In this document: in pieces, positions 1-16,200 of the stretch | Layout of the letters: every line of letters begins with the position of its first letter | Position numbering within the stretch: position 1 is the stretch's first letter | Assembly: GCA_964014485.1 (NCBI GenBank) | Contig: CAXHAT010000029.1 | Coordinates: 1-51,188 of the forward strand | Source of the DNA: an uncultured Deferribacteres bacterium | GTDB taxonomy: Bacteria > Zhuqueibacterota > Zhuqueibacteria > Zhuqueibacterales > Geothermadaptataceae | Length of the DNA stretch: 51,188 nucleotides | Direction of reading: 5' to 3' | Notes under the pieces: generated by a model | What the model was told of the DNA's origin: nothing | Seen by the model: only the letters and a program-made list of their open reading frames with translations | Database searches by the model: none | Translations under genes and position numbers: made by a program

Positions 1-56
1 ATCCATCAATCCATCAATCCATCAATCCATCAATCCATCAATCCATCAATCCATCC
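1..56. repeat. 8-bp tandem repeat (ATCCATCA)x6 plus one variant ATCCATCC; truncated by window edge
   Basis: Read directly from the sequence; lies 29 bp past the exbD-like stop codon. Confidence 0.95.
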
Positions 57-85: not shown

Positions 86-622
86 CTAAATAATCCCTGC
101 ACTCAGAGAAACGCTCGGGAAAAGCAGCACCTGCCGCCCGTCAACGCGGTAGGAACGCGAGGCGTCCATCGTGCTAACCAGCGTCTGGTAATTTACCGTT
201 GGTTCCGCCTGAATAATCAACGCGTCAACGTCCGGATAATTTCCTTCGGCGGCGCCTTTGATTTCGAGCAGTTTTTGCGAAAGCGCTTCAAAATCATACT
301 CGCCTTCACTGCCTTTCGGAATGGTCGGCGTTTTATTCTCACCCGGTCGGATGAGTTCCAGTGCGCTGGAAATAAAAAAGCCGTCGCCCGTCACTGAAAC
401 GGTCAAATCGAGGTTTTTGACCTTTTCTTGCGGCTGCTCATTCGCCTGTTGAATCGCGCCTGCGGCAGGCGGTAAATCCAAATCGATCACGCCTATTTTA
501 ATGAACTCGGCGGAAGACAAAAGCAGCGGGATCAGCACAACCATCAAATTCATGATAGGCGTCAAATTCGGCTCGACGTCTTCCGATTCGTTGGTTCTGC
601 GCTGGGAAGGTTTATACGCCAT
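86..622 (-). CDS. ExbD/TolR-family protein (AglQ/AglS-like); conserved TM Asp replaced by Asn
   Basis: N-terminal EPNLTPIMNLMVVLIPLLL TM motif; periplasmic LIIQAEPTVNYQTLVSTMD ExbD signature; adjacent to exbB-like gene. Confidence 0.9.
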   Translation of the reverse strand: MAYKPSQRRTNESEDVEPNLTPIMNLMVVLIPLLLSSAEFIKIGVIDLDLPPAAGAIQQANEQPQEKVKNLDLTVSVTGDGFFISSALELIRPGENKTPTIPKGSEGEYDFEALSQKLLEIKGAAEGNYPDVDALIIQAEPTVNYQTLVSTMDASRSYRVDGRQVLLFPSVSLSAGII

Positions 623-637
623 TCTTCAACCTCCCTT

Positions 638-1288
638 CTATTGATTGCCCGTGATCAGGTTGATCAATTTCACCGTGTGCTCATCGATCTCGTCGATGAT
701 TTTGGTCGTTTTATTATGCAGGTAAGTGTAGATCAGAATTGACGGTACAGCGACGGTCAAGCCCAAAAGCGTGGTGTTCATCGCCGTACTAATTCCGGCG
801 GCGAGCATACGCGATTTCTCGGCGGCGTCGATGCCTGCGATTGAAACCGATTTGAACGCCAGAATCAAGCCCCAGATCGTGCCCATCAGCCCGATCAAAG
901 TGGCGACGTTAGCGATCATCGCCAGAAAACCGGTGCGCTCTTGCAATTTTGGAATCACTTCAAGCGTGCCCTCGTCGACCGAGTTTTGGATGCTGCGAAA
1001 ATCAAATGTCTTGCTGTCGGAAACCTTGCGCAAACCAGCGCCGACAACGCGCGCGAGCGCTTTATCCGGCGCCGCGTCACACAACGCCACGGCTTCCTTG
1101 TATTCCCCGGCTTTGACCAGTTTACGAATTTCCGTCATGAACTTCGGCGCATTGATGTTCGAGCGCACGAGAATATAAACAATTCTTTCAATCGCAATCG
1201 CCGCTGCAACAGCCGCCACAATCGCGAGGATCATCATATAAAAAAAACCGTCTGATGAAGGGGAAAACCCCGAAACAATTTCGCCCAT
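638..1288 (-). CDS. MotA/TolQ/ExbB proton channel protein (AglR-like)
   Basis: Three TM segments; IANVATLIGLMGTIWGLI and LAAGISTAMNTTLLGLTVAVP motifs; GGAGG RBS upstream. Confidence 0.93.
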   Translation of the reverse strand: MGEIVSGFSPSSDGFFYMMILAIVAAVAAAIAIERIVYILVRSNINAPKFMTEIRKLVKAGEYKEAVALCDAAPDKALARVVGAGLRKVSDSKTFDFRSIQNSVDEGTLEVIPKLQERTGFLAMIANVATLIGLMGTIWGLILAFKSVSIAGIDAAEKSRMLAAGISTAMNTTLLGLTVAVPSILIYTYLHNKTTKIIDEIDEHTVKLINLITGNQ

Positions 1289-1509
1289 TCAGGGACCTCC
1301 TAAGTCATTTTTCCTAAATACTTCTATTTTCTGTCCATTGAACGCTGACAGAATTTTTGAACCCTGGCAAAAAATTCCAAAGTTGTCATGCTGCAAGCAT
1401 CTTTTTTGATCGAACCCTTGAACGTTATCCGTACCGGGCGACAATAAAGATTTCTCCAGACTGACAAACCGGAGCTTTTTCGACAAGTCGGTCAGCGTTA
1501 AAAAATGTG

Positions 1510-1974
1510 CTATTTCTTTTCTTTTTTCTTCTTCTTATGGCTCGACTTCTCCTCTTTCGCCAGCTTGAGCGCCATTTCAATTTTGCCAAGCTTTTTAGGA
1601 GCGTCGAGTTCTTCGTCAAAGAGGAAAAATTCCTTCGGCAAAGACTTGATCTCCTTTGCGAAAGAACGATCCAGCTTCATCAATTCGCCCAAAATCGGCT
1701 TTTGCCGCTTGGGGATAATGTCGACGTTCGGCTTTTCAACAACGGCTTCGATGTTGATTTCCCCCAAAACCATCTCGTCGTTTTTCTGCTGATCTTTTTT
1801 TTCCTGATCAACTTTTTCCGTCTTCTTTTTCTCTTTTTTCTCGTCTTCCTTTTCTTCGCTGTTGGCTTGCGCCGCGCCTGCGGATGCAATCGCCAGACTG
1901 AGCAGGAGGAAAGTCAGTCGAGAGATATTTTTGAGTTTATTCATGATGGTTGTACCTTTATTTTTGCGAATCAT
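1510..1974 (-). CDS. Small exported protein, GltF/CglF-like (true start possibly the second Met, MNKLK)
   Basis: Signal peptide, charged linker, then LGEINIEAVVEKPNVDIIPKRQKPILGELMKLDRSFAKEI, which resembles the GltF 'IEG..xKP....R....LxxxRxxF' pattern as recalled; position between TPR genes and exbB. Confidence 0.6.
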   Translation of the reverse strand: MIRKNKGTTIMNKLKNISRLTFLLLSLAIASAGAAQANSEEKEDEKKEKKKTEKVDQEKKDQQKNDEMVLGEINIEAVVEKPNVDIIPKRQKPILGELMKLDRSFAKEIKSLPKEFFLFDEELDAPKKLGKIEMALKLAKEEKSSHKKKKKEKK

Positions 1975-4900
1975 TATTCAATAAAACGCCTTTGTGCTCC
2001 GGCTTCGTCGCACGCGAGTCCCAGTCCGGGATGTGTTTTAGAAAAACCAGTGCTTCCAAGCCGCCGCCCGAACCGTCGCCGTCTTCAACGCGCAGTGCAA
2101 GAATATTTTTACCTGAGCGCAAAAACTCAGAAAAATCATACACTTGCGGCTTGGCGCCCTTGGCCGGACTGCCGTGCGTGCTAATCAATTCACCGTTAAT
2201 ATAGAATTGATAGCCGTCATCAGCGGAAATCTGGATTTGCCCTGAAACCGGCAATCCCTTCACGTCAATCGTCTTGCGGAAGAAAGCTTTTTTCGCACGC
2301 TTGGCGTTTGAAACAGCGCCAATTTTTGTCAGAACGTCCGAAGAATCGACTTGGGTAGAATCCGTCGCATCGACGTCTTCATAAAGCCATATTTTCTCCG
2401 CGCGATAAGCCGCAAAAGAGCGCGCCGTTTCTAAAATGTCCGGCTTTTTCCAATTCGCCGCCGCAAAGCCCGGCAACGTCCATCCGTTTTGTTCAACCGT
2501 TGTCGTCGTCCAGGTTAAATCGCTGACGATGCGATAATCTTGCAATGTCAAGCCGAGAAGCCCGACATGCGCCTCCGGATCGCTCTTGACCAACGCCGCC
2601 GTCAGTTTGTCGACGCGACTGTTGTCGTACTTGAAATCAAGGCAAAACTGGTAGCCCTGCTTGAGCAGCGCCTTGTTCTTGTCCGCCAGCGCGAACATAA
2701 AATCTTCAAAAGTGAACTTGGCGTTCTCAAAAACCGGGTCGCCGTCTTCTTTGGATTTCCGATCAAAGCCGGCGTGGTGCGATTGCGCAACTTTTCGCAA
2801 TGAATCCGTGTTTGCCGTTGCATTCTCGACAAATTTGATCGCTTCATCTCGGGCAATTTTCAGCGCCTTGTTTTCGATCCGATTCTCCGCCGCCGTTGCC
2901 AAAGTCGTTCTGAAGCTTTTCAGCGCCGCGGCCGAGAAATTTGTTGACGCATCGAGCCATTTCTTCATTTCTCCAGCCAGCGCTTGGGCTTCCGCATCAT
3001 TTTCAACCAACATTTTCGGAAGCTGCACAAAACTATTTTCAAAATCGTTCTCGGCGTCCTGCGCAAGCTTCAGATATTCGTCCGCCAGCAACTGCCGCGT
3101 GGTCACAATGCGCGTTTTCGACGCTTCCACCCACTGATTATCCAGGCCCAAATCGCCCGATTCTTTCAAATTTCGCGTGTGCGCCGCAACGATCTCATCA
3201 ACCAGCGGGCTGATGTACTTTTCCAAAAGCGCGCCGCGAAAAGTCAACTTTTTCGAACGGTTTAAGCTCGCCGGGACAGGCGCTTGCAAAAGGCTCTCAA
3301 CCGAGGAAGAACCAAGCTCGGCAACGTCATAAATCGTTTCGGAAACCTTTTCCTTCGAACGTTTGATCCAGCGATCCGCGACCACTAAAGTCGTGTCAGC
3401 AAATTGAATCTTATCGTCGGCGCTTTCTTCCTTAACCTTCGCCGCGGCTGTCTGATATTTTTTCGACAAGGTCTGCAAAATATCAATGCTGTTGCGGTAA
3501 GCGTCGAAGGCCCGTTCGTAGAGCGAGGACGCGGTCTCATTAATCTCTTTGCGCGCAACAATTCGCTGCGCGTCGGCCATGCCGCCGATTTCCTGTTTGG
3601 CCCACGTTTCGGCAAACTGCTCATAAGCGTAGCCGATTTTGTAGGTCGATTCGTACAATTTGATCGTGCCGTATTTTGCAACTTTGGCGTAGCTGTCGAC
3701 AAGCTCGACCAACATCGTCTTTTTCTGATCCTTGCTTGCTTGCAGGGTCGAAGCGGGCAGCTCGAACCGGATATCTTCGTAGCTTTTCAATTTCAATTCG
3801 GTGAGATGGAAAAGCGCCTCGGCGGCGAAAAATTTATTGCCGTCCTTGCCTTCCTTTAGAAAAGCGTCACTCTTGGCGACGGCCTTTTCGTACTCCGTTT
3901 TCGCTTCAGGAATCCGACGAATCGACTCGTAATATTCACCTCGACGATAAAACGTCTCGACTGTGCGCGGCGAATCTGGAAACTTCCGCGCGTAATCGTC
4001 ATAAACGCGATTGGCTTCCTCAAGCTCATTTAGTTTCAAATGATAATTCGCGACGTCGTAAAACAAATCGTCCGCGTCTTCCGAGCCTGGGTAGCGATCA
4101 ACGAACTTGTGATTGACGCGAATAGCGCGCCCCCAGGATTCCGCTTTGGCATAAAAAACCGAAGCGTTATAAAGATGCGCTTCGCCTTTCGTCGAGTCGG
4201 GGTCTTCTTCGCCCAACCGCTCAAAGATATTCGCCGCGTTGCTGAAATCTTTCAACTCGCCGTAATCGATAGCCATATTGTTGAGCGACATGAGGTAGTA
4301 TTTTGACGCAGCGTATTCTTTTGAGAGTCGCTCGTACGTCTCAATCGCGCGCTTGTATTCCTTGCCGCGATCAAAGGCGAGCCCGGCGTTGAAAAGCGCT
4401 AAATCCGCAAACTCCGCATCCGCCACTTCTTCCGCGACGCGAATGTATTCTTCCGCCGCTTTAAAATGCTTGTCTTCTTCCGCCAATGCTTCCGCTTGCA
4501 AATAAATCGCTTCCGCCAAACGCTTTTTGGCCTTGCCGGACAGCTCGGGCGAATAATCTTTTTCGCGCAGTCGCTTCGAAACGATTTCGACGCTCTCAAA
4601 GTCACGGCTGCCGAAATAACTTTCCATCACCAGGTATTCCGCATCCGCCGCCAGCGAATCGTTCTGAAAATGTTTGAGCACCGTTTTGAAATATTTCAGC
4701 GCATTGCGAAAATTATTCTTGTTGTAATAGATCGACCCTGCCTGTGCGAGACGCGCCGGAGTTTCCACATCTTGTGGAAAGAGTTTGATGAAATTATCAA
4801 TCGCCTCGACCAGCTTTTTTTCGCTCGCAGTCAAATCTTCCGGCTGGGGGTTCAAGTCGACGCTCGTCGTGTCCCGCCCGCGCACTGTTTCCGCCAATTC

Positions 4901-6472
4901 CGCAACGTCGCGAACGCCAAGATCGCCCGACGCTTGCGAGACGAGATCCTGCGCCAGCGCAACCGCGTTTTTCGCCGACTCCAGTTGATAGTCCGAATCC
5001 CAATATTGATTGCTGATCGCGATGTATTCGTCGTAGGCTTGAGACGAGCGCTCCAGCTTCGCATCGAGCGTCAGAGCCATGTTCCAGTGCAATTTTGCCG
5101 CACTCGTATCCTCGGGAAAAGCGCGCAAGTACTCGCGCGTATCGCTCACCGCCTGCCCAAAAAGCTCGCGGTCGTCGATTTGTTCGGCAACATCCAGAAG
5201 CATGTTGATATTTGAGCGCAGCGCGTGTTCCGCAAGTCCCCGGCCTTTCGTGCGGGCGTCTTCATCTTCAACGCGCACCCACCATTCCGAGCCTTCGTTG
5301 TATTTTCTGAACAATTCTTTGCGGACGAGATAAGTCTGCTCGTCATCCTCAAGATACCGGTAGGATTCGGCAATTTTTGCCTGGATCACCGGCGCATCAG
5401 GTGCGTAAGGGTAAAGCTTCAGCAAAAGTTTGTACGCCGCAACCGCCTTCTCGTGCTCTTCTTTCACTTCCATGTAGGCGTCGCCGATTTTCCGCAGAAT
5501 TTCTATGCCATAGCCGCGCCCGCCCAAAGCCGAAAGGAATGCTTCCGCACCTTCAACGCCTGAATGATCGAGAAAGCTGACGCCGATATATTCGATCGAT
5601 TCTTCGCGCAAGTTCGGGTTGGTAAATTTGTTGTTGGGATCAATCTCTTCTGCGCGCGTAACGTCGTCCGCCAGCAAGGTAAAATATCGGATGGCTTCGG
5701 AAAAATTGTTGAGCTTGTAATACGCCCAGCCCAGCCTGTAGAGCGCTTCGTTGTATTTCGGGCTTTCTTTGTATTCCAAAATACGTTCATAAATCGCGAC
5801 GGACTTTTCCAAATCAGACTGCGGCGGGTTGAACCAGTACTCCGCTTGGCGCATCAACACGTCCGGCACGTAGGGACTGCCGGATTGTCGATTGAGAAAG
5901 TCTTCGTAAAGCGCCAAAGCGTCTTGTTTTTGTCCGGCTTCTTCGGTTAAAAACGCGATGTTGTATTGTGAATCATCGATCAACTGGCTGGCGGGAAATT
6001 CTTCAATAATCCGTGAGTAAAGCGCGAGCGGTTTTGTGTAATCACGTTTTGGTTCGGGCGGCGTAAAACTAACGCCCGCCGCATCCAGAGAGTCGAGAGT
6101 TTGACCGTAGGCTTCCTGCGCCTGCATGTAGTTCTCGGCGGCGTCTTCGTAGTGCAATTCCGCCAGACGAAAAAGCACTTTATCCAACACGTTGCTTTCC
6201 GATTGGCTTTCGACGAAAGCCTCAAGTTCCGAAATGCCTTTACGGCGCAAGACGGCGCGTTCGCTTTCGAGACGATCGCGCTCTTCCTGGTAAAATCTTT
6301 TGTATTTCAGAAGCTCGTCCACGCTATAAGAGCGCAGGAGCGAATCACTGATTTGGTTGGCTGTCAGTTGGCTGACGTCGCCGTTTTTTTGCGCCGTCAG
6401 CGATCCTGCGCCGAAAGCCAAAAGCGATGCGGGCAGGAAAAAGTATTTTCTAAATCCGTGAAGCCAGTTCAT
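1958..6472 (-). CDS. 1504-aa exported TPR protein (GltD/AgmU-like) with C-terminal jelly-roll carbohydrate-binding-like domain
   Basis: Signal peptide; many BamD/YbgF-type TPRs (DKVLFRLAELHYE, EALYRLGWAYYKL, DLALFNAGLAF); C-terminal FFRKTIDV..QISADDGYQFYING..LRSGKNILALRV. Confidence 0.8.
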   Translation of the reverse strand: MNWLHGFRKYFFLPASLLAFGAGSLTAQKNGDVSQLTANQISDSLLRSYSVDELLKYKRFYQEERDRLESERAVLRRKGISELEAFVESQSESNVLDKVLFRLAELHYEDAAENYMQAQEAYGQTLDSLDAAGVSFTPPEPKRDYTKPLALYSRIIEEFPASQLIDDSQYNIAFLTEEAGQKQDALALYEDFLNRQSGSPYVPDVLMRQAEYWFNPPQSDLEKSVAIYERILEYKESPKYNEALYRLGWAYYKLNNFSEAIRYFTLLADDVTRAEEIDPNNKFTNPNLREESIEYIGVSFLDHSGVEGAEAFLSALGGRGYGIEILRKIGDAYMEVKEEHEKAVAAYKLLLKLYPYAPDAPVIQAKIAESYRYLEDDEQTYLVRKELFRKYNEGSEWWVRVEDEDARTKGRGLAEHALRSNINMLLDVAEQIDDRELFGQAVSDTREYLRAFPEDTSAAKLHWNMALTLDAKLERSSQAYDEYIAISNQYWDSDYQLESAKNAVALAQDLVSQASGDLGVRDVAELAETVRGRDTTSVDLNPQPEDLTASEKKLVEAIDNFIKLFPQDVETPARLAQAGSIYYNKNNFRNALKYFKTVLKHFQNDSLAADAEYLVMESYFGSRDFESVEIVSKRLREKDYSPELSGKAKKRLAEAIYLQAEALAEEDKHFKAAEEYIRVAEEVADAEFADLALFNAGLAFDRGKEYKRAIETYERLSKEYAASKYYLMSLNNMAIDYGELKDFSNAANIFERLGEEDPDSTKGEAHLYNASVFYAKAESWGRAIRVNHKFVDRYPGSEDADDLFYDVANYHLKLNELEEANRVYDDYARKFPDSPRTVETFYRRGEYYESIRRIPEAKTEYEKAVAKSDAFLKEGKDGNKFFAAEALFHLTELKLKSYEDIRFELPASTLQASKDQKKTMLVELVDSYAKVAKYGTIKLYESTYKIGYAYEQFAETWAKQEIGGMADAQRIVARKEINETASSLYERAFDAYRNSIDILQTLSKKYQTAAAKVKEESADDKIQFADTTLVVADRWIKRSKEKVSETIYDVAELGSSSVESLLQAPVPASLNRSKKLTFRGALLEKYISPLVDEIVAAHTRNLKESGDLGLDNQWVEASKTRIVTTRQLLADEYLKLAQDAENDFENSFVQLPKMLVENDAEAQALAGEMKKWLDASTNFSAAALKSFRTTLATAAENRIENKALKIARDEAIKFVENATANTDSLRKVAQSHHAGFDRKSKEDGDPVFENAKFTFEDFMFALADKNKALLKQGYQFCLDFKYDNSRVDKLTAALVKSDPEAHVGLLGLTLQDYRIVSDLTWTTTTVEQNGWTLPGFAAANWKKPDILETARSFAAYRAEKIWLYEDVDATDSTQVDSSDVLTKIGAVSNAKRAKKAFFRKTIDVKGLPVSGQIQISADDGYQFYINGELISTHGSPAKGAKPQVYDFSEFLRSGKNILALRVEDGDGSGGGLEALVFLKHIPDWDSRATKPEHKGVLLNNDSQK

Positions 6473-6503
6473 GGTGCTGTATCTTCAATTTATATTTCTA
6501 AAT

Positions 6504-6562
6504 GGAGTGCGACGCTTCAGCATCGCATCGCGTTTGTCTTCAACGCTGAAGCGTTAGACTCC
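6504..6562. repeat. REP-like inverted repeat (GGAGT..ACGCTTCAGC / GCTGAAGCGT..ACTCC)
   Basis: Inverted arms visible between the two TPR genes; related copy GAGTCAAACGCTTCAGCGTTTG at 45798-45819. Confidence 0.7.
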
Positions 6563-6609
6563 TGCGTTGTATTGTATCCATTGCCAATGCTTAAGCATTG
6601 GGTTCCAAG

Positions 6610-9477
6610 TTATTTCTTTTTCTCGACTTCCGTCGTCTTGGCGTCGAAATAATTCTCTTTGAAATTCTTTTCCATCTCGAGCTTTTTCAAGCGCAGTTTT
6701 TCCGCTTCAACTTCTTTGGCAAGCCGTTTCGATTCCGCTTCAAAAGCCGCCAAACGCGCTTCTATTTCCGCTCTTCTCTTCGCGAGAATCTGCTCAATCG
6801 AAACAATACTCTGCGTATAACCCGCGATCTGGTCTTCGCGACTATTCAGGTTCTCGAGCGTAATGTCGCTCATGCCGTAGCCCGTAAAATCCGTCCATTG
6901 ATCAAATTCCGACTCAACTTCTCCCCCGCTCCGGCCGTTCAACCACGTTTGGAATCGGTCGATACGATCTTGCAAGGCCGCCAAATCGTCTTGCACCACG
7001 CGCAAATCAATAAACTGGCTGGCTTCAGGATTCTTGGCAAGCAGCGCCTGTGTTTCGTTCAAATATTCGTGAATTTTGCTTTTTTCCAACTCCATCTCGC
7101 GCAGCATGTCGCGCACAACTTCTTTGCGCTGCTTTCGGCTGCTTTCCATCATTGCAAGCGGGTAATTCACGAAGTAATCGGAGTCTTTCAGTGACTCGTC
7201 CAGCCCTTCCGTCACCAGTCTGTCAATCAATTTTCCGCGTCTTTTTTCCGCTTTCTTAAGAACTTTCCGATCTCCGGCTTCTTTCGCTGAAGCGATCAAA
7301 GCGTCATAATCGCGCAATAAGCTGTAGAGTTTTTGCCGCTCTTGATTCTGTGCATCCGGCCAAGCTTCGCCCACGCCGGAGCGATAACGCATTTTGATTA
7401 AACTGTCTTGCAGTGTCTGCTTTTTTTCGGTCACATTTTTATACAATTCCGGGCGTTGCTGCTCAAAAACCAATTTTTCCAAACGTTCAACTTCATCCAA
7501 CTCAGCCTGTAGAGCTTCGCGCTCCGCGTGGTAATCTCCGGCGCGATCCAGAGCCTCTCTCGCATTCGAAACATAGCGCAAATCCGTCAATGCGTCGCCG
7601 GATTGATTGATTTTTCGCTTACATTGCGCCGCAAGCACGAGCGCTTCATAAGTATAATCGCTGGAAACAAAGCCGCCAAACAGCGCTTCCGCGTTAGCAA
7701 TCGAAGCGTCAAAGTCGCCCTTTTTCATCGACGCCCAGGCCTTGCCGATCAAGGCTTGATCGCGGCCGTCGGCGCCCCTGCTTATTTCTTCAAAATACTT
7801 CAAAGCCCTGTCGTATTGGCCTCTTTCGTAATGAATAAAACCCAATTTCAAGAGCGCATTGTTGCGCAAAAGGGCAAGCTCGGCGGAAGACCACGGCAGG
7901 TTTTTCATATTGCCGATTTTCGAAAAAATCGTGACGGCTTCGTCGTAGTTTTGACGGTGCGAGAGCACAATTCCCAGCAAGTACTGCCCAGGCAAATGAT
8001 ATTTCGAATCATTGGAAATTTTCTTAAGCGCTCTCTCCGCCAATTGATTTTGGCGGTGTTTTAGACCAAAATATCCGGCAATAAAATAGACGCGATTTTT
8101 GACTTGGTCGCCAAACTCGGCTTCGCGTTTTTCAAAAGCGGCGAATTTCTCGGAAAAGACGTTTTTCAGGTTACGGGTTTGCGCGATGGTCAGCGTACGC
8201 AAAAATGCGTCTTCAACAAACGGATTGTCGGGGAAATTGTCGATTAGGTTGGTGAAGTCTTCCAACGCTTGCTCATAGTGAAATTGAGCATAGCGCGATT
8301 CGCCGCGATAATAGTGCGCGCCGTCGAGCCGCTTATAATACGGCCCGAAGTCCCTCAATAATTGATCGAGCTGCATTTCGCACAGTGCGTACTCTTCATT
8401 CGCGTAATTGAGCAAAGCGTCGGTTAAATCGCGTTGCAGCATACGATTTCTTTCGCGTTCCGCGCCGTGCTTGAGCAAGGAAGCTTTCATCACGAGATAA
8501 GCGTGCAATTTCGCTTCATAGTCGGCCTGCCTCGCGCTGCGCCATTGCTTGAAAATATCGCTTAACGATTCTCTGTCTTCTTCGAAAACATTTGCGACGC
8601 CGAACAGCTCTTCGAAGCGCTTCTCAAGATTTTTCTCATCATCGCTATCTGCGCGCTCGCTCGGCCCGCTTAAGCGTCCCCCGGATTCAACGCGAATAAA
8701 CTGCATTTCATCGACAACGAGATTGAGTTCCGGCAAATTCTTGGCATAAACCGGCGCAGCGCCGGCGTAAATCGAATCGCCTCCGGCAACAGCCAAACGG
8801 GCGAATTTGGCCACGCGGTTTTTCTGATCGTCTATGCGGTACAGAAGTTCGCGATCTTTTTCCTGGTCGAGTTTACGTTCTATCGCGGAAAGCTCGTTGT
8901 GATAGCTTTCCAGCAATTCGGAATCCAGGTAATGGCCGCCGAGAAATTGCAGCAATTCTTCTCTGCTGAGGGGCGTGAATTCATCGAAACGATTCGCTTC
9001 AATCAGCGCATTAATCGAGTCTTGTAAAACGGCGGCTTCATCTGCTTCAGCGAATTTTTCGCCTGCATCCAATCGTCTGCGAAGGCGCTCGATTTCACCG
9101 GTCAAATCGACGACGCGATCTAATTCGCTCGAATATTCAACGATGAGCTGATCTAAATCGCGGTAGTACGGTCCAAAATCAGGATCGTCCGCGACGACTC
9201 TTTTCAAGCCGCGCGCCTTAATTTCGGCGGAAATATTTCGAATGGCCTGGAGCAAAAGGGTCTCTTTCGCCGCCATATCGATAAGGTATCGTTTGCTTTC
9301 ACGATCAAAATAAAAGCTCAAACGATCTTGATATGAAATATGGATGGAATCTTCAGCGGTACGCCTGGTTTGACTCTGACTATGTTGCACGGCGGTAACG
9401 AGAAACGTCACCGTCAACGCAAATAGCGCCCAGGTCGGAATGATGAAACGCTGAACTCTCCTTAGTTCTTTGCGCAT
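6610..9477 (-). CDS. 955-aa exported TPR/coiled-coil protein (GltC-like)
   Basis: Hydrophobic N-terminal signal; TPRs (AHYYRGESRY, NALLKLGFIHYERGQYDRALKYF, DQALIGKAWA); long C-terminal coiled coil. Confidence 0.75.
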   Translation of the reverse strand: MRKELRRVQRFIIPTWALFALTVTFLVTAVQHSQSQTRRTAEDSIHISYQDRLSFYFDRESKRYLIDMAAKETLLLQAIRNISAEIKARGLKRVVADDPDFGPYYRDLDQLIVEYSSELDRVVDLTGEIERLRRRLDAGEKFAEADEAAVLQDSINALIEANRFDEFTPLSREELLQFLGGHYLDSELLESYHNELSAIERKLDQEKDRELLYRIDDQKNRVAKFARLAVAGGDSIYAGAAPVYAKNLPELNLVVDEMQFIRVESGGRLSGPSERADSDDEKNLEKRFEELFGVANVFEEDRESLSDIFKQWRSARQADYEAKLHAYLVMKASLLKHGAERERNRMLQRDLTDALLNYANEEYALCEMQLDQLLRDFGPYYKRLDGAHYYRGESRYAQFHYEQALEDFTNLIDNFPDNPFVEDAFLRTLTIAQTRNLKNVFSEKFAAFEKREAEFGDQVKNRVYFIAGYFGLKHRQNQLAERALKKISNDSKYHLPGQYLLGIVLSHRQNYDEAVTIFSKIGNMKNLPWSSAELALLRNNALLKLGFIHYERGQYDRALKYFEEISRGADGRDQALIGKAWASMKKGDFDASIANAEALFGGFVSSDYTYEALVLAAQCKRKINQSGDALTDLRYVSNAREALDRAGDYHAEREALQAELDEVERLEKLVFEQQRPELYKNVTEKKQTLQDSLIKMRYRSGVGEAWPDAQNQERQKLYSLLRDYDALIASAKEAGDRKVLKKAEKRRGKLIDRLVTEGLDESLKDSDYFVNYPLAMMESSRKQRKEVVRDMLREMELEKSKIHEYLNETQALLAKNPEASQFIDLRVVQDDLAALQDRIDRFQTWLNGRSGGEVESEFDQWTDFTGYGMSDITLENLNSREDQIAGYTQSIVSIEQILAKRRAEIEARLAAFEAESKRLAKEVEAEKLRLKKLEMEKNFKENYFDAKTTEVEKKK

Positions 9478-9820
9478 CGTATCCTCTTCACAGTTGAGGC
9501 GGGTTATATCTGAGAAGTCTAATCTCTGCTTTTTAACTGCGAGCCTGACTCATCCTTGAATTACTTTCCATTTTGGCGGATCGCAGCAGCGTACGTATTA
9601 TCCTGCGGGCGTCAATTTATGTCTTTCAAAATTCACAGCCGTGAAGCCCCTTCCCGGTGTCTAATCAATGCAGGCGGAATCGTTCCGTTCGCACGCTTCT
9701 CAACTATATACAGACGCATAGGGCGGATTACAGAACAAATTTTCAAATGAGAGAAATTGAAGGCGGGTTAAAACCAAAATCCCATATTCGATTTTTTCGT
9801 TTGTCTTGTTCAGAACAGAA

Positions 9821-9949
9821 GGAGTGCAAAGCTTGCTTTGCCTCGCATCCGGCTCAAACAAACGAAACTCATTTTTCAACAAAAGATGGCGTGAACCGCA
9901 TGATTGGGCAAAAGCCCGCCGATGAAAAGCAAGGCAAGCCTTGTACTCC
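9821..9949. repeat. Inverted pair of GGAGT-type REP-like hairpins (REPIN-like)
   Basis: GGAGTGCAAAGCTTGCTTTGC (9821-9841) vs reverse complement of 9929-9949 GGAGTACAAGGCTTGCCTTGC, 18/21 identical with a compensatory change in the stem. Confidence 0.7.
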
Positions 9950-10084
9950 TTTCTCATTTTGCCGATGCAGCCGGCGGACGTCCGGACGCGGGGTTTTATG
10001 AAAGCCGTGCAGGATGCACCAAGCATACCAATGCACTATCAGGCAAGTTGAACACTAAGATTTGAAATTATCGGATTGTTCCGA

Positions 10085-12280
10085 TCAGGAGCTTTCTTGC
10101 AAGGCCGGCGTTGGGGAGTCATCGTCCTGAGCGCCGCCGGCTCTCCATTGCAGCATAATACGCGCAATATTCGTTGCGTGGTTGCTCATTCGACGAAACT
10201 GTTCGAGTAGATCCTGGTGCGTTTCGCTGGTGAGTTGGCTTTCCGGCACGTCGTCGCGCAGACGTTCAAAATGCGTACGCACGAACGCTTCTTCCAAAGA
10301 GCGGTGTTTTTTAAACTTGCGTTTCATCTTCTTGGCTTTTTGCAAGTCAACGTCTTTGAAAACGGTCAAAGCGCGTCCGACCTGCTTGATGGTTTGTTGG
10401 TGGAAATCAATGAGTTCTTGCCGCCCTTTTTCTGAAAACTGGTCTTGCAGCGCCAGCCACTTTCGAGCGCGCGGGGCCAAGTTTTTGTGAACAATGTCCG
10501 CAATCTGCTCAAACTCCGTCACGGCGTACATCATCTGAAACGCCTCTTCCGTTTGCTCTTCCGAGATGCTTTGTTGACTGATTCGCGTCAAATACAGGTT
10601 CGTTTTATCATATAGAAAATCAACTTCCTGCTCAATGTTATTGATTTCTTCAAGAACTGCTGCGTCCCGTGATACGAATGCATTGAGAATTTTTTCCGCC
10701 ATCGTTTTCGCTTTTTCCGCGATCACCAGAATTTCCGCTTTTGCCAGACTCAGCGCCAGCACCGGCGTGGAAATAAGAGCATCATCGATGAATCGCGTTT
10801 TGTATTTCTCTTCAATCGTCTCTTCTCGATCAGGAAGAATCTTCAAAATCAAGTTCGCGGACTGACGGGCGAATGGCAGGACAATCAAGGCCGTTGCAAT
10901 ATTGAAAATGGTGTGCGCATTGGCGATTTGGCGTGGTACAATAGCCGCCAATTGCTCCGTTCCCGAAAGACCAGGGTCGCCTTGTGGTGAAATAGAACGA
11001 ATGAACTCGGCAAAAGTCGGTATCCAAAAAATGAACACCAGCACGCCCGCCACTTGAAAAAGCGTGTGTGCAGCGGCCACGCGCTTGGCTTCTCGTCCGG
11101 CGCCCAAACTCGCCAGTCCGGCAGTTATACACGTCCCGATATTGGCGCCAAGAATAAGCGGAACCCCCGCTTCCAAAGTCAGCAAGCCCTGAATCGCTAG
11201 AACGATCAAAATTCCCGTAAAAGCGCTGCTGCTTTGGATCAACGCCGTAAATGCGGCGCCGACCAAAATGCCAAGCACGGGATTTTCAAGCGTAATGAGA
11301 AGGTCAATAAACGGCTGCCATGAACGCAGCGGATACATCGCTTCGGACATGATGCGCATGCCGAAAAACAATAACCCAAAGCCGAGAATCGTTTCGCCGA
11401 TGTTTTTCGCCTTTTCTTGTTTGGCCAAAAAATGTACGCCCATACCCAGCGCTACCATGAGCAATGCATAGTCCGTCAGCTTGAAAGCAACCAATTGCGC
11501 GGTGATGGTTGTACCAATGTTCGCGCCCATAATCACGCCAAGCGATTGCACGAAAGTCATCAGTTGCGCCTGAACAAAACTGACGAGCATCACCGTCGTT
11601 GCACTGCTGCTTTGAATAATCATCGTCACAAAGGCGCCGACCCCAAGCGCAACAAAACGATTGTGCGTCAGTTTGCTCAAAATGGTTTTCATCCGGTCGC
11701 CGGCGGTCTTTTTCATGCCGTCGCTCATCATTTTCATGCCGTAGAGAAACATGCCGAGCCCGCCCAAAAGCCCGATGATTAGCATGAAAACCCAATTGCC
11801 TTTTCGTGCCGAAGCTTTGTATAAAAGCAAATTATTTTCGCCGCCGGATTGTATGTCCAGCTTTGCCGCGAGCACATATTCGCCCGCCTTACTGCCAAGA
11901 TTTACTCGCACTGCTGCAAGACCGTTTTCGTCCGTGTAGGCGAGGTCTTTCGAGATAGAAAATCCTCCTGCGCCTTTCGGCGAGGAAATGAGAGAAAATC
12001 GTACCGGGATATTGGAGACCGGTTGCCCGTTTTCATCGTTAGCTTGCACGCGAATGGGTTTGGACAGAGAATCGCCGACAACCGCATACTGCCCGTCGCC
12101 GGAAAAATTGGGGATCGTTGTTGATGGTGGTTTAGTGAGAGAGATTTGCTGCAAGCGAGCCGTTTGACCCAAATGTTTTTCTGCAGCCCAACCAAGTTGC
12201 GGAATGAGCAAAAGAAAAACGCCCCGCCACAAAAGGCGCTCTCCGTGTATAAAAATATCAGGCCAACTCTCTTGTCTCAT
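10085..12280 (-). CDS. Na/Pi cotransporter (NptA/YjbB family) with N-terminal exported Ig-like (Big_1-like) domain and C-terminal PhoU-like domains; start uncertain (GTG 12301 or ATG 12280)
   Basis: Two QSSS motifs (IIQSSSATT, LIQSSSAFT) and two GANIGT motifs; PhoU-like C-terminus (EFEQIADI, FRRMSNHATNIA); N-terminal DENGQPVSNIPVRF..TDENGLA Ig pattern. Confidence 0.9.
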   Translation of the reverse strand: MRQESWPDIFIHGERLLWRGVFLLLIPQLGWAAEKHLGQTARLQQISLTKPPSTTIPNFSGDGQYAVVGDSLSKPIRVQANDENGQPVSNIPVRFSLISSPKGAGGFSISKDLAYTDENGLAAVRVNLGSKAGEYVLAAKLDIQSGGENNLLLYKASARKGNWVFMLIIGLLGGLGMFLYGMKMMSDGMKKTAGDRMKTILSKLTHNRFVALGVGAFVTMIIQSSSATTVMLVSFVQAQLMTFVQSLGVIMGANIGTTITAQLVAFKLTDYALLMVALGMGVHFLAKQEKAKNIGETILGFGLLFFGMRIMSEAMYPLRSWQPFIDLLITLENPVLGILVGAAFTALIQSSSAFTGILIVLAIQGLLTLEAGVPLILGANIGTCITAGLASLGAGREAKRVAAAHTLFQVAGVLVFIFWIPTFAEFIRSISPQGDPGLSGTEQLAAIVPRQIANAHTIFNIATALIVLPFARQSANLILKILPDREETIEEKYKTRFIDDALISTPVLALSLAKAEILVIAEKAKTMAEKILNAFVSRDAAVLEEINNIEQEVDFLYDKTNLYLTRISQQSISEEQTEEAFQMMYAVTEFEQIADIVHKNLAPRARKWLALQDQFSEKGRQELIDFHQQTIKQVGRALTVFKDVDLQKAKKMKRKFKKHRSLEEAFVRTHFERLRDDVPESQLTSETHQDLLEQFRRMSNHATNIARIMLQWRAGGAQDDDSPTPALQESS

Positions 12281-12322
12281 CACGACAATACTATGTAACA
12301 CACTTCGGATAACATTCGTGAG

Positions 12323-12342
12323 CTTAACGTTGAATTAACACA
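12323..12342 (+). promoter_or_regulatory. Candidate Pho box (11-bp periodic TTAAC direct repeat)
   Basis: CTTAACGT-TGA-ATTAACAC, with further TAACA half-sites at 12296 and 12310, between two phosphate-related divergent genes. Confidence 0.45.
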
Positions 12343-12426
12343 CAATTCATTTTTTCTTCAACTTTTAAAAGACCGTCGCCAATACATTGAAACAACCCTG
12401 TTATTCAACCTAACCGGATTTTTGTT

Positions 12427-13245
12427 ATGTCAAACAAGAAAACTTTAGAGAACAAGCAAGCTGCGCCTAAAAAAATAGACACAAAAGTTTATGAGAAACA
12501 ACTTGCGCACCTCCAAATAGAACTTGTCAAATTGCAGGAATGGGTCAAGCATGAAAAACTGAAAGTTGTGGTCATTTTTGAAGGGCGTGACGCAGCGGGG
12601 AAAGGCGGCGTGATCAAACGGATTATGCAAAGACTCAATCCACGAGTTTGCCGCGTCGTCGCGCTCGGCGTGCCAACAGAACGTGAAAAAACGCAGTGGT
12701 ATTTTCAGCGCTACGCCGCGCACCTGCCAGCATCCGGCGAGATGGTGCTTTTTGATCGGAGTTGGTACAATCGCGCCGGCGTTGAGCGCGTTATGGGATT
12801 TTGCACTGACGAAGAATATGAAGAGTTTTTACGGTCTTGCCCCCAGTTCGAACGCATGCTCGTTCGTTCGGGAACCATTCTCATTAAGTATTGGTTTTCT
12901 GTCAGCATTGAAGAGCAGGAAAAACGATTTCAAGACCGATTGCTCAACCCGGTCAAACGCTGGAAGCTCAGTCCAATGGATTTGAAATCACGCGATTTGT
13001 GGGAAAAATATTCCATCGCCAAAGATAGAATGTTCGCCTATACAGACATCAAACAAGCGCCGTGGTTCGTTGTCAATGCGGATGTTAAAAAACGTGCTCG
13101 TCTGAACTGCATTCACCACTTGTTAAGCCAAATTCCCTACGATGATTTGACGCCCGATCCCATGGAACTGCCGCAGCGCAGCGAGTATACCGGCTACATC
13201 CGCCCGCCAATCACAGATCAGACTTTTGTTCCGGAAGTTTATTGA
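12427..13245 (+). CDS. ppk2: Polyphosphate kinase 2 (single domain)
   Basis: FEGRDAAGKGG Walker A, LFDRSWYNRAGVERVMGFC, WKLSPMD signatures. Confidence 0.97.
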   Translation: MSNKKTLENKQAAPKKIDTKVYEKQLAHLQIELVKLQEWVKHEKLKVVVIFEGRDAAGKGGVIKRIMQRLNPRVCRVVALGVPTEREKTQWYFQRYAAHLPASGEMVLFDRSWYNRAGVERVMGFCTDEEYEEFLRSCPQFERMLVRSGTILIKYWFSVSIEEQEKRFQDRLLNPVKRWKLSPMDLKSRDLWEKYSIAKDRMFAYTDIKQAPWFVVNADVKKRARLNCIHHLLSQIPYDDLTPDPMELPQRSEYTGYIRPPITDQTFVPEVY

Positions 13246-13261
13246 ATTTGATGAACCGCTG

Positions 13262-16200
13262 TCAAAAAAAAGCCCGCACTTCAGCTTTCGCGATGTGTAT
13301 TGTGCGAGGGCGGTCAGGCTCGTTTCGGCCCTGGTAAGTGATTGAAGCGTTGAGGTTTTGGGAGAGGCGGTAATTGAAGGAAAAATTCCAGCGAAAAGTG
13401 TCGCCGGCGCGGTTGCCTTGCGCGAGTTCAAAAGGAATCGGCTGCCCTGGCGCGGCGTCTGCCGTCACGCTCGTGTACTCAATTTCGCTCCGGAGCACGC
13501 CCTTGCCGCTGAGAGAATAAACCGCGCGCGGCTTCAGCGTAATTTGCCGAACGGTTGTCGCCGGATCGGGCGCTTCGTCGCGATCTCGCCCGAAAATTGA
13601 ACGCAAAGCCAGCTCGAAACGCGGGCGCGGGCGATAAGAAAAATCGCTTTCAAAGCGTAGGCCGCGCACAAAGCGATCAAATCTGCCGGGAATGGAAAAC
13701 GTTCGGTCTTCGCGCCGTTGAATCAATTCAAATTGTCCCGCCACATTTTTGGCCAGCGTTCTATTCAATCGCAGTTCATGCCTGATCTCCCGCCGTCGTT
13801 GACCGCCTTCAAGAAATTGATTATTCAAACTTTTGGCCGTCACCAATCGATAGCGCAGCGAAAAATCCCGCCGACTTTGGTAAAGGTGGAAATCCTGCCG
13901 CAAGCTCAAATTCCCTAGCAAAGAAAATTCCTGATTCTGGTAGCGCGAAAGGTTGAAAAAGTAAATATCGCGTACATCCGGATCGCGCGTTTTCTCTTCG
14001 ACCCGCACCAATGTTTCGCCGGAAAGCGGCATGAGCAGTTTTTGAATCCCAGAAAGCGTCTTCTTGTTTTTCAACGCCGTTTCAGGCTTGACGCGCAATT
14101 GCAAACGACTGCGTAAATCGGAAACAGGGATGAATTCGTCGGTCGGCACCAAGCGTCGGATAAAATCGCCGAACGGGCGTTGAACATATTCATTTAAATC
14201 ATCGCTGAAAATGTAGTTGCCTTCCCCCTCGCGCACACGAAAAAAAACTTCCTCCTGCTGGTTGACCTGCGAATTGGAAATTTGGTAGCGCGCGTCCAGA
14301 CGCACGGCGCGCCGCCAGCCGTGCCAGCCCAAACGTATTTCCGCCAAATCAGTGCGTGTGTTTTGGCGCAGACTATCCGTGTAATCGCGCTCACGATGAA
14401 CATAATTAGCGCTTGCCTGTATATTTTTCCAGCGTTGAATCGAAAAAGCGTAGGACTGCGTCCGCGCCTCGCTGGCTTGTTGAAAAACTTCGCCGATGCG
14501 ATCATCATCTCGCCGAATTGAATATTTGGCCTCAAAGCGTGCGTTTTGCCATTTTTCCAGAGCAAAACCGCCGGTATAATCGCCGAAGCGGAAACCGGTG
14601 CGGAGCGTATCAAAGCGTGCGTCTTTCTTGGTTTCTTGTTCAATTTGAAAGATGGGTCGAATAAATCCAAGGCGCCGGTTCAGCGCCCCTTTCTGCCGCA
14701 TCCAGGAATCTCCGCTCGACAAGGTTCTCGTTTTTCGTGCAATGTTTTCGATGCGATAGTTTAGGTTGAGCAGGTCGGGGCGTCGCCAATTCGCGCCAAT
14801 CTCCCAGCGGTCGGAATTGACGTCTGCTGCGTCTTGTTGCAACGCGCCAAGAGTACCATAAAACTGCATTTCGTTCCACGGCTCAAAACGTAATTCCGCC
14901 TCACTGATCGATTCTCCAAGTCCGGCCGTAACGTCTTGAATATCCCAACGTCTGCCGAATTCGATCACGTCCGCACGATCAATGTCTTGGTAGCGCTCCC
15001 CACGTCTACGGTGCTTAAGTCGCAGCGAACCCTTGCCTAAATTCCGCCCTAAAAAGCGCAATTTTTCCGGCGCATAATTTAGTTCCCAAAAAGATGCGCC
15101 GCCGCGATTGTCATCATCGTTTAGTCCTGAATAAAGATTGTTGTCAAAACCACTGACAGCGATTTCCGAGCGCAAAGTAAGTCCGGGAAGCGGCGAAGCG
15201 TCAATGCGAAAATCAGCAAGTTCGTTGCGTTGCGCCTTCGGCAAAATGACGAATGGTCGATAACGCCCGGCGCCCTCACCAACGAAATCGTAGTTGCCAA
15301 AACCGGAATATCGGTAGTCTCCATTTCCGTCGCCGAAATCTGAAAAACGCACGCGATAATCGCCGTTGCCCCTGCCGACAAAAACAAAAATTGAGTCTTG
15401 CAGAAGATAACTGCCCTGGTTTTCGCCAACGAAAAGCGCGCCGTCGACAAAGGCGAGACTGTCACCGGCGCCGGAGAGCGTTTCGAGCAATTCGTCAGTC
15501 AGCGGCAGGCCGAGAGGGTTGTTTTTATCGTCGCTTTCGCGCAACAGGGTCGTGCGTATTTTCAGTTTGTCGCCAAACGTGCGGATGTTTGCTTCCGAGC
15601 CAAACAAAGTGCGCTGAAATTTTTCATCTGAAAATTGAAAATCGATTGTAATGCGCGAATCGCCGGTGATAAGCCGATTGCGTGTAAAGGTCATTTGCCC
15701 ATTGCCGTATTCGATGACATAGTCGTTGTTTTCACCGCGGATCATCGGCTCGCCGTCAATCCAAACGCGCTCGGTTCCGGCAAGAATGATAATATCGACC
15801 TGGCCTTTGTCTCCGGTCAATTGATAAGGGCCCTGGTTGCCCTCGACTCCCAATAACTCCATCGTGTGGAAACGCCCGCGTGAAACGGCTCCAAAGATGG
15901 ATATTTTTGCCGCGCCTTGCTCAACGTTTATGGCAGCGCCTTGCAATTTCCGACGAAATCCGGCAAACTCCGTCCCCGAAAACGTAAGTTCATAATCCCC
16001 CATCGTCGCGTCAAAATGTCTGCCTTTGAGATTAATGAAAACCTGGTCGATTTCACGCAACGTTTGTGTATTTCCTTCCGGCTGGATCGGCGTATTCTGG
16101 TCGGTGAGCGCAGCAGTCACCGCAATATCTTCCGTAATATTTCCAGAGAGTTGGAGGCGCAGCCCGGAATCTACGCGTAAATTCTGATTTGAACCGACAG

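Follow-up and report, generated by a model that had tools for sequence, protein, structure and literature searches.

A probable KSB1 version of the Agl-Glt core complex, encoded in a seven-gene operon of an uncultured bacterium

The stretch of DNA considered here, 51,188 nucleotides long and called the window in the following, is the complete contig CAXHAT010000029.1 (C29) of the genome of an uncultured bacterium (GCA_964014485.1, here G000; 8.4 Mb, 465 contigs, rated 97% complete). At its left end it carries two genes for giant tetratricopeptide repeat (TPR) proteins, a gene for a small exported protein, and one gene each of the ExbB and ExbD families, and the question raised by this locus is which machine such a row of genes might encode. 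Our answer is that these five genes open an operon of seven, the remaining two of which lie on another contig (C369, 4.4 kb) and which ends at a strong hairpin, and that the operon is a candidate division KSB1 version of the published Agl-Glt core complex with the order GltC-, GltD-, GltF-, AglR-, AglQ-, AglS- and GltG-like. We put the probability of this whole reading, including the identity as a core complex, at roughly 0.8.

The gliding and spore-coat machines of Myxococcus presumably descend from the Agl-Glt core complex, which has been in the literature since 2011 and whose function is still called unknown. According to the relevant part of Luciano et al. (2011; PMC3169522) the genes gltC, gltD, gltE, gltG, aglR, aglQ and aglS form a Group B; outside the Myxococcales and Bdellovibrionales they are clustered in a “core complex” whose function is unknown, accompanied by an extra gene without a myxobacterial homologue. 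GltF is placed there in the glider-specific Group A, and the core is argued to be insufficient for motility and to occur mostly in bacteria which are not known to glide. A preliminary description of the window, made from its letters and open reading frames (ORFs), overstated the novelty of the locus, as this kind of system, including an example without GltE from Fibrobacter, a member of the FCB (Fibrobacteres, Chlorobi, Bacteroidetes) bacteria, was already presented in that paper.

The features on which the argument builds are these (aa, amino acids):

6610..9477, minus strand: GltC-like gene, 955 aa, ORF with TPR families
1958..6472, minus strand: GltD-like gene, 1504 aa, putative exported TPR scaffold
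1510..1974, minus strand: small GltF-like gene, 154 aa, remote profile match and GltF position
638..1288, minus strand: gene for an ExbB-type channel (AglR-like), 216 aa, PF01618
86..622, minus strand: first ExbD gene (AglQ position), 178 aa, PF02472
2033..2545, minus strand: predicted C-terminal beta-sandwich of the 1504-aa protein, residues about 1310-1480
1..48, strand not applicable: octamer repeat ATCCATCA in six copies, at the contig end and at the break between the first and the second ExbD gene
C369, 169-675: second ExbD gene, 168 aa, PF02472 with 44.5 bits
C369, 656-1819: AgmX-like (GltG-like) gene, 387 aa, NF033768, overlapping the end of the second ExbD gene

The five genes of the window are found at the coordinates claimed for them in the preliminary description, all on the minus strand and head to tail. 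The row was said to run to the left edge, and the contig indeed stops 85 bases past the stop codon of the first ExbD gene, within the copies of ATCCATCA; nor is there a GltE-sized gene between the GltD-like gene and the small gene, since the 1504-aa frame already reaches into the latter past its annotated start. ORF lengths of 955 and 1504 aa are well above chance expectation, and both proteins have relatives with 28-53% identity. Promoter- or terminator-like sites do not occur in the window above their frequency in shuffled sequence; of such signals the hairpin behind the last gene of the operon (see below) is the only one to stand out.

The continuation is found on C369. This contig starts with five reverse-complement copies of ATCCATCA, followed by (CAACACTC)5 and then by the second ExbD gene (the repeat copies are at 8-47 and 98-137 of the locus, L001), and the ExbD frame at its extreme start was detected by a genome-wide ExbD search. 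The second ExbD gene and the TonB_C/AgmX gene which had been predicted to lie to the left of the window are thus both encoded there, and the stop codon of the AgmX-like gene, the last of the operon, is followed by a 14-pair hairpin with a T-run. The synteny survey that had been proposed gave a clear result: in six of six relatives the genes for the 955-aa and 1504-aa TPR proteins, the small protein, ExbB, ExbD, the second ExbD and the AgmX-like protein are contiguous and co-oriented, so that the row which is split over two contigs in G000 is clustered as one row in each of these six. It is because of this contiguity that we accept the join of C29 and C369, the repeat alone being no proof. The flanks of the seven-gene unit are different in all six relatives, and different from those of G000, and therefore the unit is taken to be these seven genes. 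The guess that the genome is of the KSB1 type agrees with the source names of close channel homologues (“candidate division KSB1”, “Calditrichaeota”); KSB1 titles also stand on several of the related loci, and the label as used here comes from these relatives and is not a placement of G000 itself.

The space between the two ExbD genes is about 10-180 bases in the relatives, and it is here that the octamer repeats lie in G000. The tandem repeat of ATCCATCA occurs at 7 places in the genome and that of CAACACTC at 5, with the two side by side on C299 and C369; besides the window and C369 the contigs with octamer repeats are C47, C56, C299, C307, C313, C212 and C281. C307 was considered as a continuation of C29 and rejected, as its first gene is on the opposite strand.

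The comparisons argue strongly that the 1504-aa protein is a GltD-type exported TPR scaffold. It contains TPR families (Pfam), and in blastp it matches the 1089-aa protein in the GltD position of a Myxococcota genome (G171) with 25% identity over 887 aa (expectation value E 3e-42) and a paralogous Myxococcota GltD-like protein with E 1e-74 over 946 aa, while GltE and GltC give local matches only. Eighteen of its 19 matches in four Myxococcota genomes have a GltG-family match no further than about 6 kb away, and therefore the search recovers GltD relatives and not general TPR proteins. The GltG gene of G171 (579 bits) has as neighbours GltF/CglF (105.7 bits, cut-off 90), GltE (172 bits, cut-off 225) and the 1089-aa TPR protein, directly upstream of which GltC is found. 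The core shared across phyla comprises residues about 60-1000, and the protein was matched in 41 of 41 genomes of a class-level sample. No GltD model turned up in the NCBIfam scans. The YbgF model matches the 1504-aa protein with 105.6 bits (cut-off 90.1), and BamD TPR models match it too; the Myxococcota protein in the GltD position gives the same matches, which are therefore generic to the GltD family.

At the other end of the operon the 387-aa protein reaches 86.1 bits with the AgmX/PglI C-terminal domain model NF033768, well over a cut-off of 40 which was passed in none of 14 control genomes, and its end domain is 39% identical over 82 aa to that of GltG (E 3e-17). It also passes the cut-off of TIGR01352, tonB_Cterm (30.6 bits, cut-off 27.1), and stays just under that of Pfam TonB_C (23.8 bits, cut-off 24.6); the GltJ model matches nothing but the end domain, with 27.7 bits (cut-off 450). 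The protein has one transmembrane helix and a long low-complexity linker rich in Gly, Ser and Pro. At the domain level it is thus a bitopic TonB-like protein of the AgmX/PglI (GltG) type.

The third line of evidence is the motor. The 216-aa protein is a member of PF01618, MotA_ExbB (89.1 bits, cut-off 22.9), and stays far below the equivalog cut-offs both of TolQ (72.2 bits, cut-off 221) and of ExbB (49.9 bits, cut-off 206); the 178-aa protein belongs to PF02472, ExbD (52.8 bits, cut-off 25.4), and reaches 21 bits with the TolR equivalog (cut-off 127). When the channel was compared to five Myxococcota genomes, the top matches gave 133-145 bits and a second tier 118-129 bits, with all others at or below 77 bits; in G000 itself a paralogue gives 147 bits and the rest at most 74 bits. 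A quick IQ-TREE analysis of 91 channel proteins put both KSB1 copies within a clade of 81 rows (Shimodaira-Hasegawa-like approximate likelihood ratio test, SH-aLRT, 91) which contains the ExbB genes of the fetched loci, among them those of the ExbB-ExbD-ExbD triplets of Myxococcota and Bdellovibrionota. Neither TolQ (239 bits with the TolQ model) nor the remaining ExbB/TolQ paralogues in G000 and G171 fell inside, the branch being supported at 96. The Myxococcota genomes used as anchors carry GltG proteins of 710.9 bits (Anaeromyxobacteraceae, above the cut-off) and of 579 bits (the G171 protein mentioned above). The triplet, contiguous in all six relatives, is by these comparisons assigned to the AglRQS lineage rather than to TolQR/ExbBD.

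A cross-phylum locus scan with a 7-row channel alignment returned 80 loci. After the channel gene a first ExbD was found in 60 of them and a second in 69, and by our own count 20 of the 80 have the complete co-oriented row from the GltD-like to the GltG-like gene. The transmembrane Asp of ExbD/TolR is the proton carrier. At this position the 178-aa protein of the window has Asn; in an alignment of eight proteins of each type Asn is found in 7 of the first ExbD proteins and Asp in all 8 of the second; across the 80 loci the first ExbD has Asp in 33 and Asn in 27 of 60, and the second Asp in all 69. The Asn type of the first ExbD accompanies the clustered, core-type operons, whereas both Asp residues are kept in the stand-alone Myxococcota triplets and in the Bdellovibrionota triplets. 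Among the representatives of the channel family some are 430-439 aa long, twice the normal length (P0131, P0134, P0137, P0142 and others; one cluster is named Candidatus Raymondbacteria), and these may be fusions of a channel to an ExbD protein.

The 955-aa protein has a coiled coil, a TPR region (residues about 350-650, Pfam) and a K/E-rich coiled coil, and it appears to be exported or anchored. Its gene is directly upstream of the GltD-like gene, as is that of GltC in all four Myxococcota genomes checked (G168-G171). The pairwise similarity to a Myxococcota GltC-like protein is weak (blastp, E 9e-5). In a profile-profile comparison (hhalign) its family matched 19 Myxococcota GltC proteins with a probability of 98.0 and E 2e-13 over 412 columns; as a TPR control the same family was compared to that of the 1504-aa protein, which gave 96.1 over 158 columns. 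It also matches the YbgF/CpoB and BamD TPR models. By position and profile the protein is thus best described as GltC-like.

The small protein has a signal-peptide-like N-terminus (AQA/NS, judged by eye), which a K/E-rich linker joins to a conserved core (residues about 66-120), and no Pfam family was found in it. A profile of eight KSB1 homologues was run against the fetched loci (7,287 ORFs) and matched small ORFs in the same position in Latescibacterota and Fermentibacterota, and also the genes in the GltF position of a Myxococcota paralogue cluster. A second profile was restricted to the core (54 columns, signal peptide excluded, 24 FCB-type sequences); it matched the GltF-position proteins of the Myxococcota paralogue cluster with E 2e-8 and gave no match in the reversed database. 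Iteration with a full-length profile reached the true GltF of the G1 cluster (E 4.5e-8); this profile includes the signal peptide and is not relied on. When the core was compared by hhalign to 29 cores of GltF/NfsF-like proteins from 20 Myxococcota genomes, the probability was 85.6 with E 5.6e-6 over 46 columns, against 1.7 or less in the controls, one reversed and 20 column-shuffled. The two families have an ungapped pattern in common, I-[ED]-[GA]-x-[VLI]-x-[KR]-P, followed by R, L, F and I/L at fixed spacings. The small protein is therefore described here as a probable remote homologue of GltF/CglF. In the literature on GltF/CglF homologues outside the Deltaproteobacteria nothing was found beyond Luciano et al. 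(2011) and a 2020 bioRxiv preprint, in the available part of which seven core genes are given, GltF not being among them.

When the small protein and the end domain of the GltG-like protein were modelled as a complex, the ipSAE was 0.37, the best of 3 controls reaching 0.02, with an agreement between runs of at least 84% of contacts and a partner predicted local distance difference test score (pLDDT) of about 47. The mark used for such predictions is reached by 116 of 157 solved complexes and by 2 of 215 mismatched pairs; of those that reach it with a value of 0.60 or less there are only 18 of the 157 solved complexes, together with both passing mismatches. The model lends weak support to a binding of the small protein to the end domain. 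The GltF/CglF model itself gives up to three tiers of small proteins per genome in Myxococcota G168-G187, at about 93-109, 54-68 and 33-46 bits; it misses the gene in the GltF position of another GltD/GltE/GltG-like cluster (L100), which the KSB1-derived profile finds.

Beyond the known members of the GltD family the 1504-aa protein has about 500 extra residues, consisting of a helical extension and an end domain. An NCBIfam rhamnosidase stretch covers residues 1337-1479 (E 1e-7), and the AlphaFold2 model of the last 225 residues (1280-1504) is a beta-sandwich with a mean pLDDT of 79.4. When this model was compared by Foldseek to the PDB it matched beta-glucuronidases and galactosidases of glycoside hydrolase family 2 (GH2), a rhamnosidase and PA14 (best E 2e-6, probability 1.0); the TM-scores of the matches are modest (0.37-0.47, query-normalised). 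As modelled, the end domain resembles the sugar-binding N-terminal domains of GH2 enzymes, of the rhamnosidase and of PA14. Among the 80 loci the end-domain extension is found in the loci of the KSB1 cluster-1 type and in one other (L022) only.

Titles among the 80 loci, some of them plainly unreliable, include Myxococcota, Bdellovibrionota-type lineages, KSB1, Latescibacterota, Fermentibacterota and others, and the three channel-family representatives with names come from Chitinivibrionales, Raymondbacteria and a Myxococcales bacterium (48% identical). Of 167 genomes of the phylum 151 have a match to the second ExbD with an E of no more than 1e-10 (99 of the 105 of high quality), many of them with two matches; by our own count 24 of the 151 have a weaker match only (best E 3.7e-19 to 3.1e-25), in the range of the paralogous cluster described next. 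This tally, like that of 41 of 41 above, includes the unpublished genomes G016 and G023, on which nothing else here depends. The Protein Atlas gave TPR clusters only at 0.94 and above, without taxa; its rows for Myxococcota, Fibrobacterota and Pseudomonadota are below 0.9 and are leads only.

G000 has a second cluster of seven genes in the same order:

C51 (L017), 5016-13026, minus strand: paralogous cluster encoding TPR proteins of 474 and 981 aa, a small protein of 124 aa, ExbB of 211 aa, ExbD proteins of 151 and 169 aa, and an AgmX/PglI-type protein of 444 aa (66.4 bits)

The GltG-like protein of this cluster (L017 5016-6350, minus strand) has a longer cytoplasmic N-terminus, residues about 1-130, at the place of the FHA domain of Myxococcus GltG; no FHA match was found there with Pfam at E up to 1. 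A third protein with an AgmX/PglI end domain (54.5 bits) is encoded on C78 (L018 4709-5866), distant from any ExbB/ExbD gene and adjoining a 972-aa protein with TolB-like propeller repeats (L018 1238-4156).

The preliminary description had expected similarity to the Glt proteins. This holds strongly for GltD, at the domain level for GltG, and by position and profile for GltC; for GltF it amounts to the remote profile match, without a match of the CglF model. Several observations weigh against the reading of the operon as an Agl-Glt core complex. None of the operon proteins passes the cut-off of a Glt equivalog model: the 387-aa protein gives 82 bits with that of GltG (E 3e-23, cut-off 650), the 955-aa protein 46 bits with the GltC model NF033756 (E 3e-12, cut-off 450), and NF033764 (GltF/CglF) has no match to the small protein, its best score in the genome being 13.4 bits. 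No FHA domain was found in the 387-aa protein. The core-only profiles of the small protein, even after one iteration, failed to reach the true G1-cluster GltF, and the link to GltF therefore consists of one profile-profile comparison together with position. The AglR identity of the top Myxococcota clade is something we infer from stand-alone triplets in Glt-bearing genomes, and it is not anchored on M. xanthus. The GltE model (NF033758) matches only TPR proteins elsewhere in G000, none of them on C29 or C51. No gene for an outer-membrane component or a barrel-type protein was found in or beside the operon in the six relatives; GltA, GltB, GltH, GltK and GltI were not searched for. Finally, the join of C29 and C369 comes from repeat and synteny and not from a read: the repeat ATCCATCA stands at three contig ends, the third being that of C307, and Logan contigs (three DNA runs of one study) cover positions 305-1300 of the window only, none of them reaching the repeat.

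How might such a machine work? The following scheme is drawn by homology with the Tol, Ton and Agl motors and from an AlphaFold-based model of the Myxococcus machine, the available part of which has an AglR5QS motor, a contact between GltG and GltD, and GltF as a bridge (PMC11761067). A pentamer of the AglR-like protein, with the two ExbD-like proteins as its heterodimeric plug, would be powered by the proton-motive force, and with the transmembrane Asp in the second ExbD only the stator would have a single proton site. The transmembrane helix of the GltG-like protein would dock on the channel, its long Gly/Ser/Pro-rich linker would cross the cell wall and run along the GltD-like scaffold, and its TonB-like end domain would grip that scaffold. 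The GltC-like protein and the small GltF-like one would bridge this shaft to a partner in the outer membrane or on the cell surface. The load or the anchor may be a glycan, as the sugar-binding-like end domain of the GltD-like protein would suggest. The machine most likely moves or positions components of the envelope or the surface.

Two other readings start from the families of the motor proteins. The operon could be an ordinary TonB-ExbB-ExbD transducer serving TonB-dependent receptors, for instance in the import of oligosaccharides, with the TPR proteins as accessories: the ExbB and ExbD Pfam families are present, the 387-aa protein passes TIGR01352, and the Fibrobacter genes FSU_2397-2403, annotated with the same order of products, rise 1.2-1.73-fold on cellulose, for which the authors, in the relevant part of their paper, propose a TonB-dependent import of cellodextrin (Raut et al. 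2019, PMC6851124). However, no TonB-dependent receptor gene was found in the operon or its flanks in G000 and the six relatives, the channel is far below the ExbB equivalog and belongs to a clade which excludes the remaining ExbB/TolQ paralogues of G000, the AgmX/PglI end domain was passed by no control genome, the motor and its giant GltD-like partner are conserved together across phyla, and G000 has other ExbB/ExbD sets which could serve receptors; we regard such a transducer as very improbable. A second Tol-Pal-like system, which would tether the outer membrane or take part in constriction at division with TPR proteins acting like CpoB/YbgF, is hardly much better placed and in our view quite improbable. 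TolQ is the best named NCBIfam match of the channel, the YbgF/CpoB and BamD models match both TPR proteins, that of YbgF even above its cut-off on the 1504-aa protein, and an operon that is near-universal in the phylum is what one would expect of a housekeeping system. Against this, neither the operon of G000 nor those of the six relatives contain tolA, tolB or pal; C77 carries a TolB-like gene of full length (302.7 bits) next to an OmpA/Pal-like one, the best TolQ-like gene is on C43, and the YbgF and BamD matches are generic to the GltD family. A Tol-like job of the core complex itself is nevertheless conceivable. A standard tolA/tolB/pal or TonB-receptor context downstream, which would have spoken against the preliminary description, was not found, and the genes which follow the first ExbD are the second ExbD, the AgmX-like gene and that of a PhoB-like regulator.

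A third possibility accepts the homology and goes further, namely that the operon encodes a working motor for gliding or surface translocation in KSB1, the full equivalent of that of Myxococcus, with outer-membrane parts that have escaped recognition. The homology to AglRQS, GltD, GltG and GltC speaks for it, as do the presence of a GltF-like protein, GltF being counted by Luciano et al. among the glider-specific genes, and the two paralogous clusters in G000, which recall the multi-machine Myxococcota. On the other side, CglB (best 13 bits, cut-off 200), CglD (best 39.8 bits, cut-off 400), GltE and GltJ stay below their model cut-offs in a genome rated 97% complete, in which GltA, GltB, GltH and GltK were not searched for; the models NF033757 (CglB), NF033759 (TraA) and NF033763 (TraB) have no relevant matches, and up to an E of 10 that of GltE has none to either TPR protein of the window. 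There is no gene for an outer-membrane barrel nearby, and the core was argued in 2011 to be insufficient for motility and to occur mostly in non-gliders. The search for KSB1 and gliding motility in the literature gave one paper, on gld genes only. We therefore give a full gliding motor very little chance, and gliding driven by the operon's machine alone is unlikely because no outer-membrane gene travels with the operon and CglB, CglD, GltE and GltJ were not found.

The core-complex reading thus remains by far the preferred one, and it has consequences of its own. The core would be a near-universal and vertically kept feature of a whole uncultured phylum, as indicated by the second-ExbD matches in 151 of 167 genomes. 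New here are the link to GltF outside the Deltaproteobacteria, the sugar-binding-like domain of the scaffold, the Asn in the first ExbD and the second, paralogous seven-gene cluster. For work in tractable carriers this provides as handles a GltF candidate, a glycan-binding-like domain and a stator with Asp in one plug subunit only. A bolder version would be that GltF is a true orthologue and was part of the ancestral core, so that the operon encodes a complete GltG-GltD-GltF-GltC shaft with a glycan load and an asymmetric single-Asp stator. We think this version doubtful. If it is true, GltF was not invented in the Deltaproteobacteria, and the “additional gene” described for the non-delta clusters is the same gene; the core complex would then get a job, namely to move or position, driven by protons, the surface polysaccharide machinery of FCB bacteria, which would fit the co-purification of the Fibrobacter cluster with a cellulose-degrading complex.

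A few neighbouring genes may be mentioned. On the window side the operon is adjoined by a gene for a Na/Pi cotransporter fused to PhoU domains and with an Ig-like N-terminal stretch (10085-12301, minus strand), followed by one for polyphosphate kinase 2 (12427-13245, plus strand), and on the other side, on C369, lies the gene for the PhoB-like response regulator (L001 2023-2733, plus strand). These three phosphate-related neighbours have no counterpart in the loci of the six relatives. Further into the window an ORF of 1148 aa (13262-16708, minus strand) has no Pfam family and a faint stretch of SprA of the type IX secretion system (22.7 bits, cut-off 200).

With Tol-Pal and TonB-ExbB-ExbD the KSB1 operon has in common, by family, a MotA/TolQ/ExbB channel, ExbD/TolR plugs, a bitopic protein with a TonB-like end domain and the presumed use of the proton-motive force. 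It differs from them by a separate channel clade, two different ExbD genes and the AgmX/PglI end domain, and also in that giant TPR partners are conserved with the motor and no TolB, Pal or receptor gene is adjacent.

The relation to the Agl-Glt/Nfs machines of Myxococcus is closer. The motor, the GltG-type transducer and the GltD scaffold appear to be homologous, and GltC-like and remotely GltF-like parts are found as well; the order GltC-GltD-GltE-GltF-GltG of the Myxococcota genomes examined agrees with the KSB1 order. In KSB1, however, the motor genes lie within the operon, the GltG-like protein is without FHA, and GltE, GltJ, CglB and CglD were not found in G000. The first ExbD is without Asp, whereas the stand-alone Myxococcota triplets keep it in both ExbD genes.

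Of the published core complexes that of Cellvibrio japonicus (CJA_3312-3319) is listed in PMC3169522 as GltC 660, GltD 964, GltE 244, an extra gene, AglR 231, AglQ 181, AglS 173 and GltG 323 aa. The gene order is that of KSB1 and the ExbD proteins are nearly equal in size (181 and 173 against 178 and 168 aa). A gene of unknown family stands exactly at the place of the small KSB1 gene, a likeness by position only, and unlike KSB1 the Cellvibrio cluster has GltE.

Closest in layout is the cluster of Fibrobacter succinogenes S85; the KSB1 operon is a system of a known kind and not a new kind. Fisuc_1892-1897 are listed in the same paper as TPR 746, TPR 1292, ExbB 212, a doubtful gene, ExbD 164 and a TonB-family protein of 308 aa, with no GltE. 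From the order of the annotated products this is probably the same row as FSU_2397-2403: in the part of Raut et al. (2019, PMC6851124) that lists it, FSU_2396 is OmpA, 2397 and 2398 are TPR proteins, 2400 is ExbB, 2401 and 2402 are ExbD and 2403 is of the TonB family. Compared by the published listing and not by sequence, the Fibrobacter cluster agrees with KSB1 in its FCB lineage, the gene order, the lack of GltE and a TonB-like protein without FHA. The KSB1 proteins are longer (955, 1504 and 387 aa), with the helical extension and the sugar-binding-like end domain on the GltD-like protein; a small GltF-like gene stands between scaffold and motor where none is listed for Fibrobacter, and the OmpA-family gene FSU_2396 upstream in Fibrobacter has no OmpA counterpart upstream in KSB1. 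According to work cited in PMC6851124 FSU_2397 and FSU_2396 were found in a vesicle complex with cellulases, and this lead from Fibrobacter and cellulose, taken together with the sugar-binding-like domain of KSB1, points to a glycan-related load.

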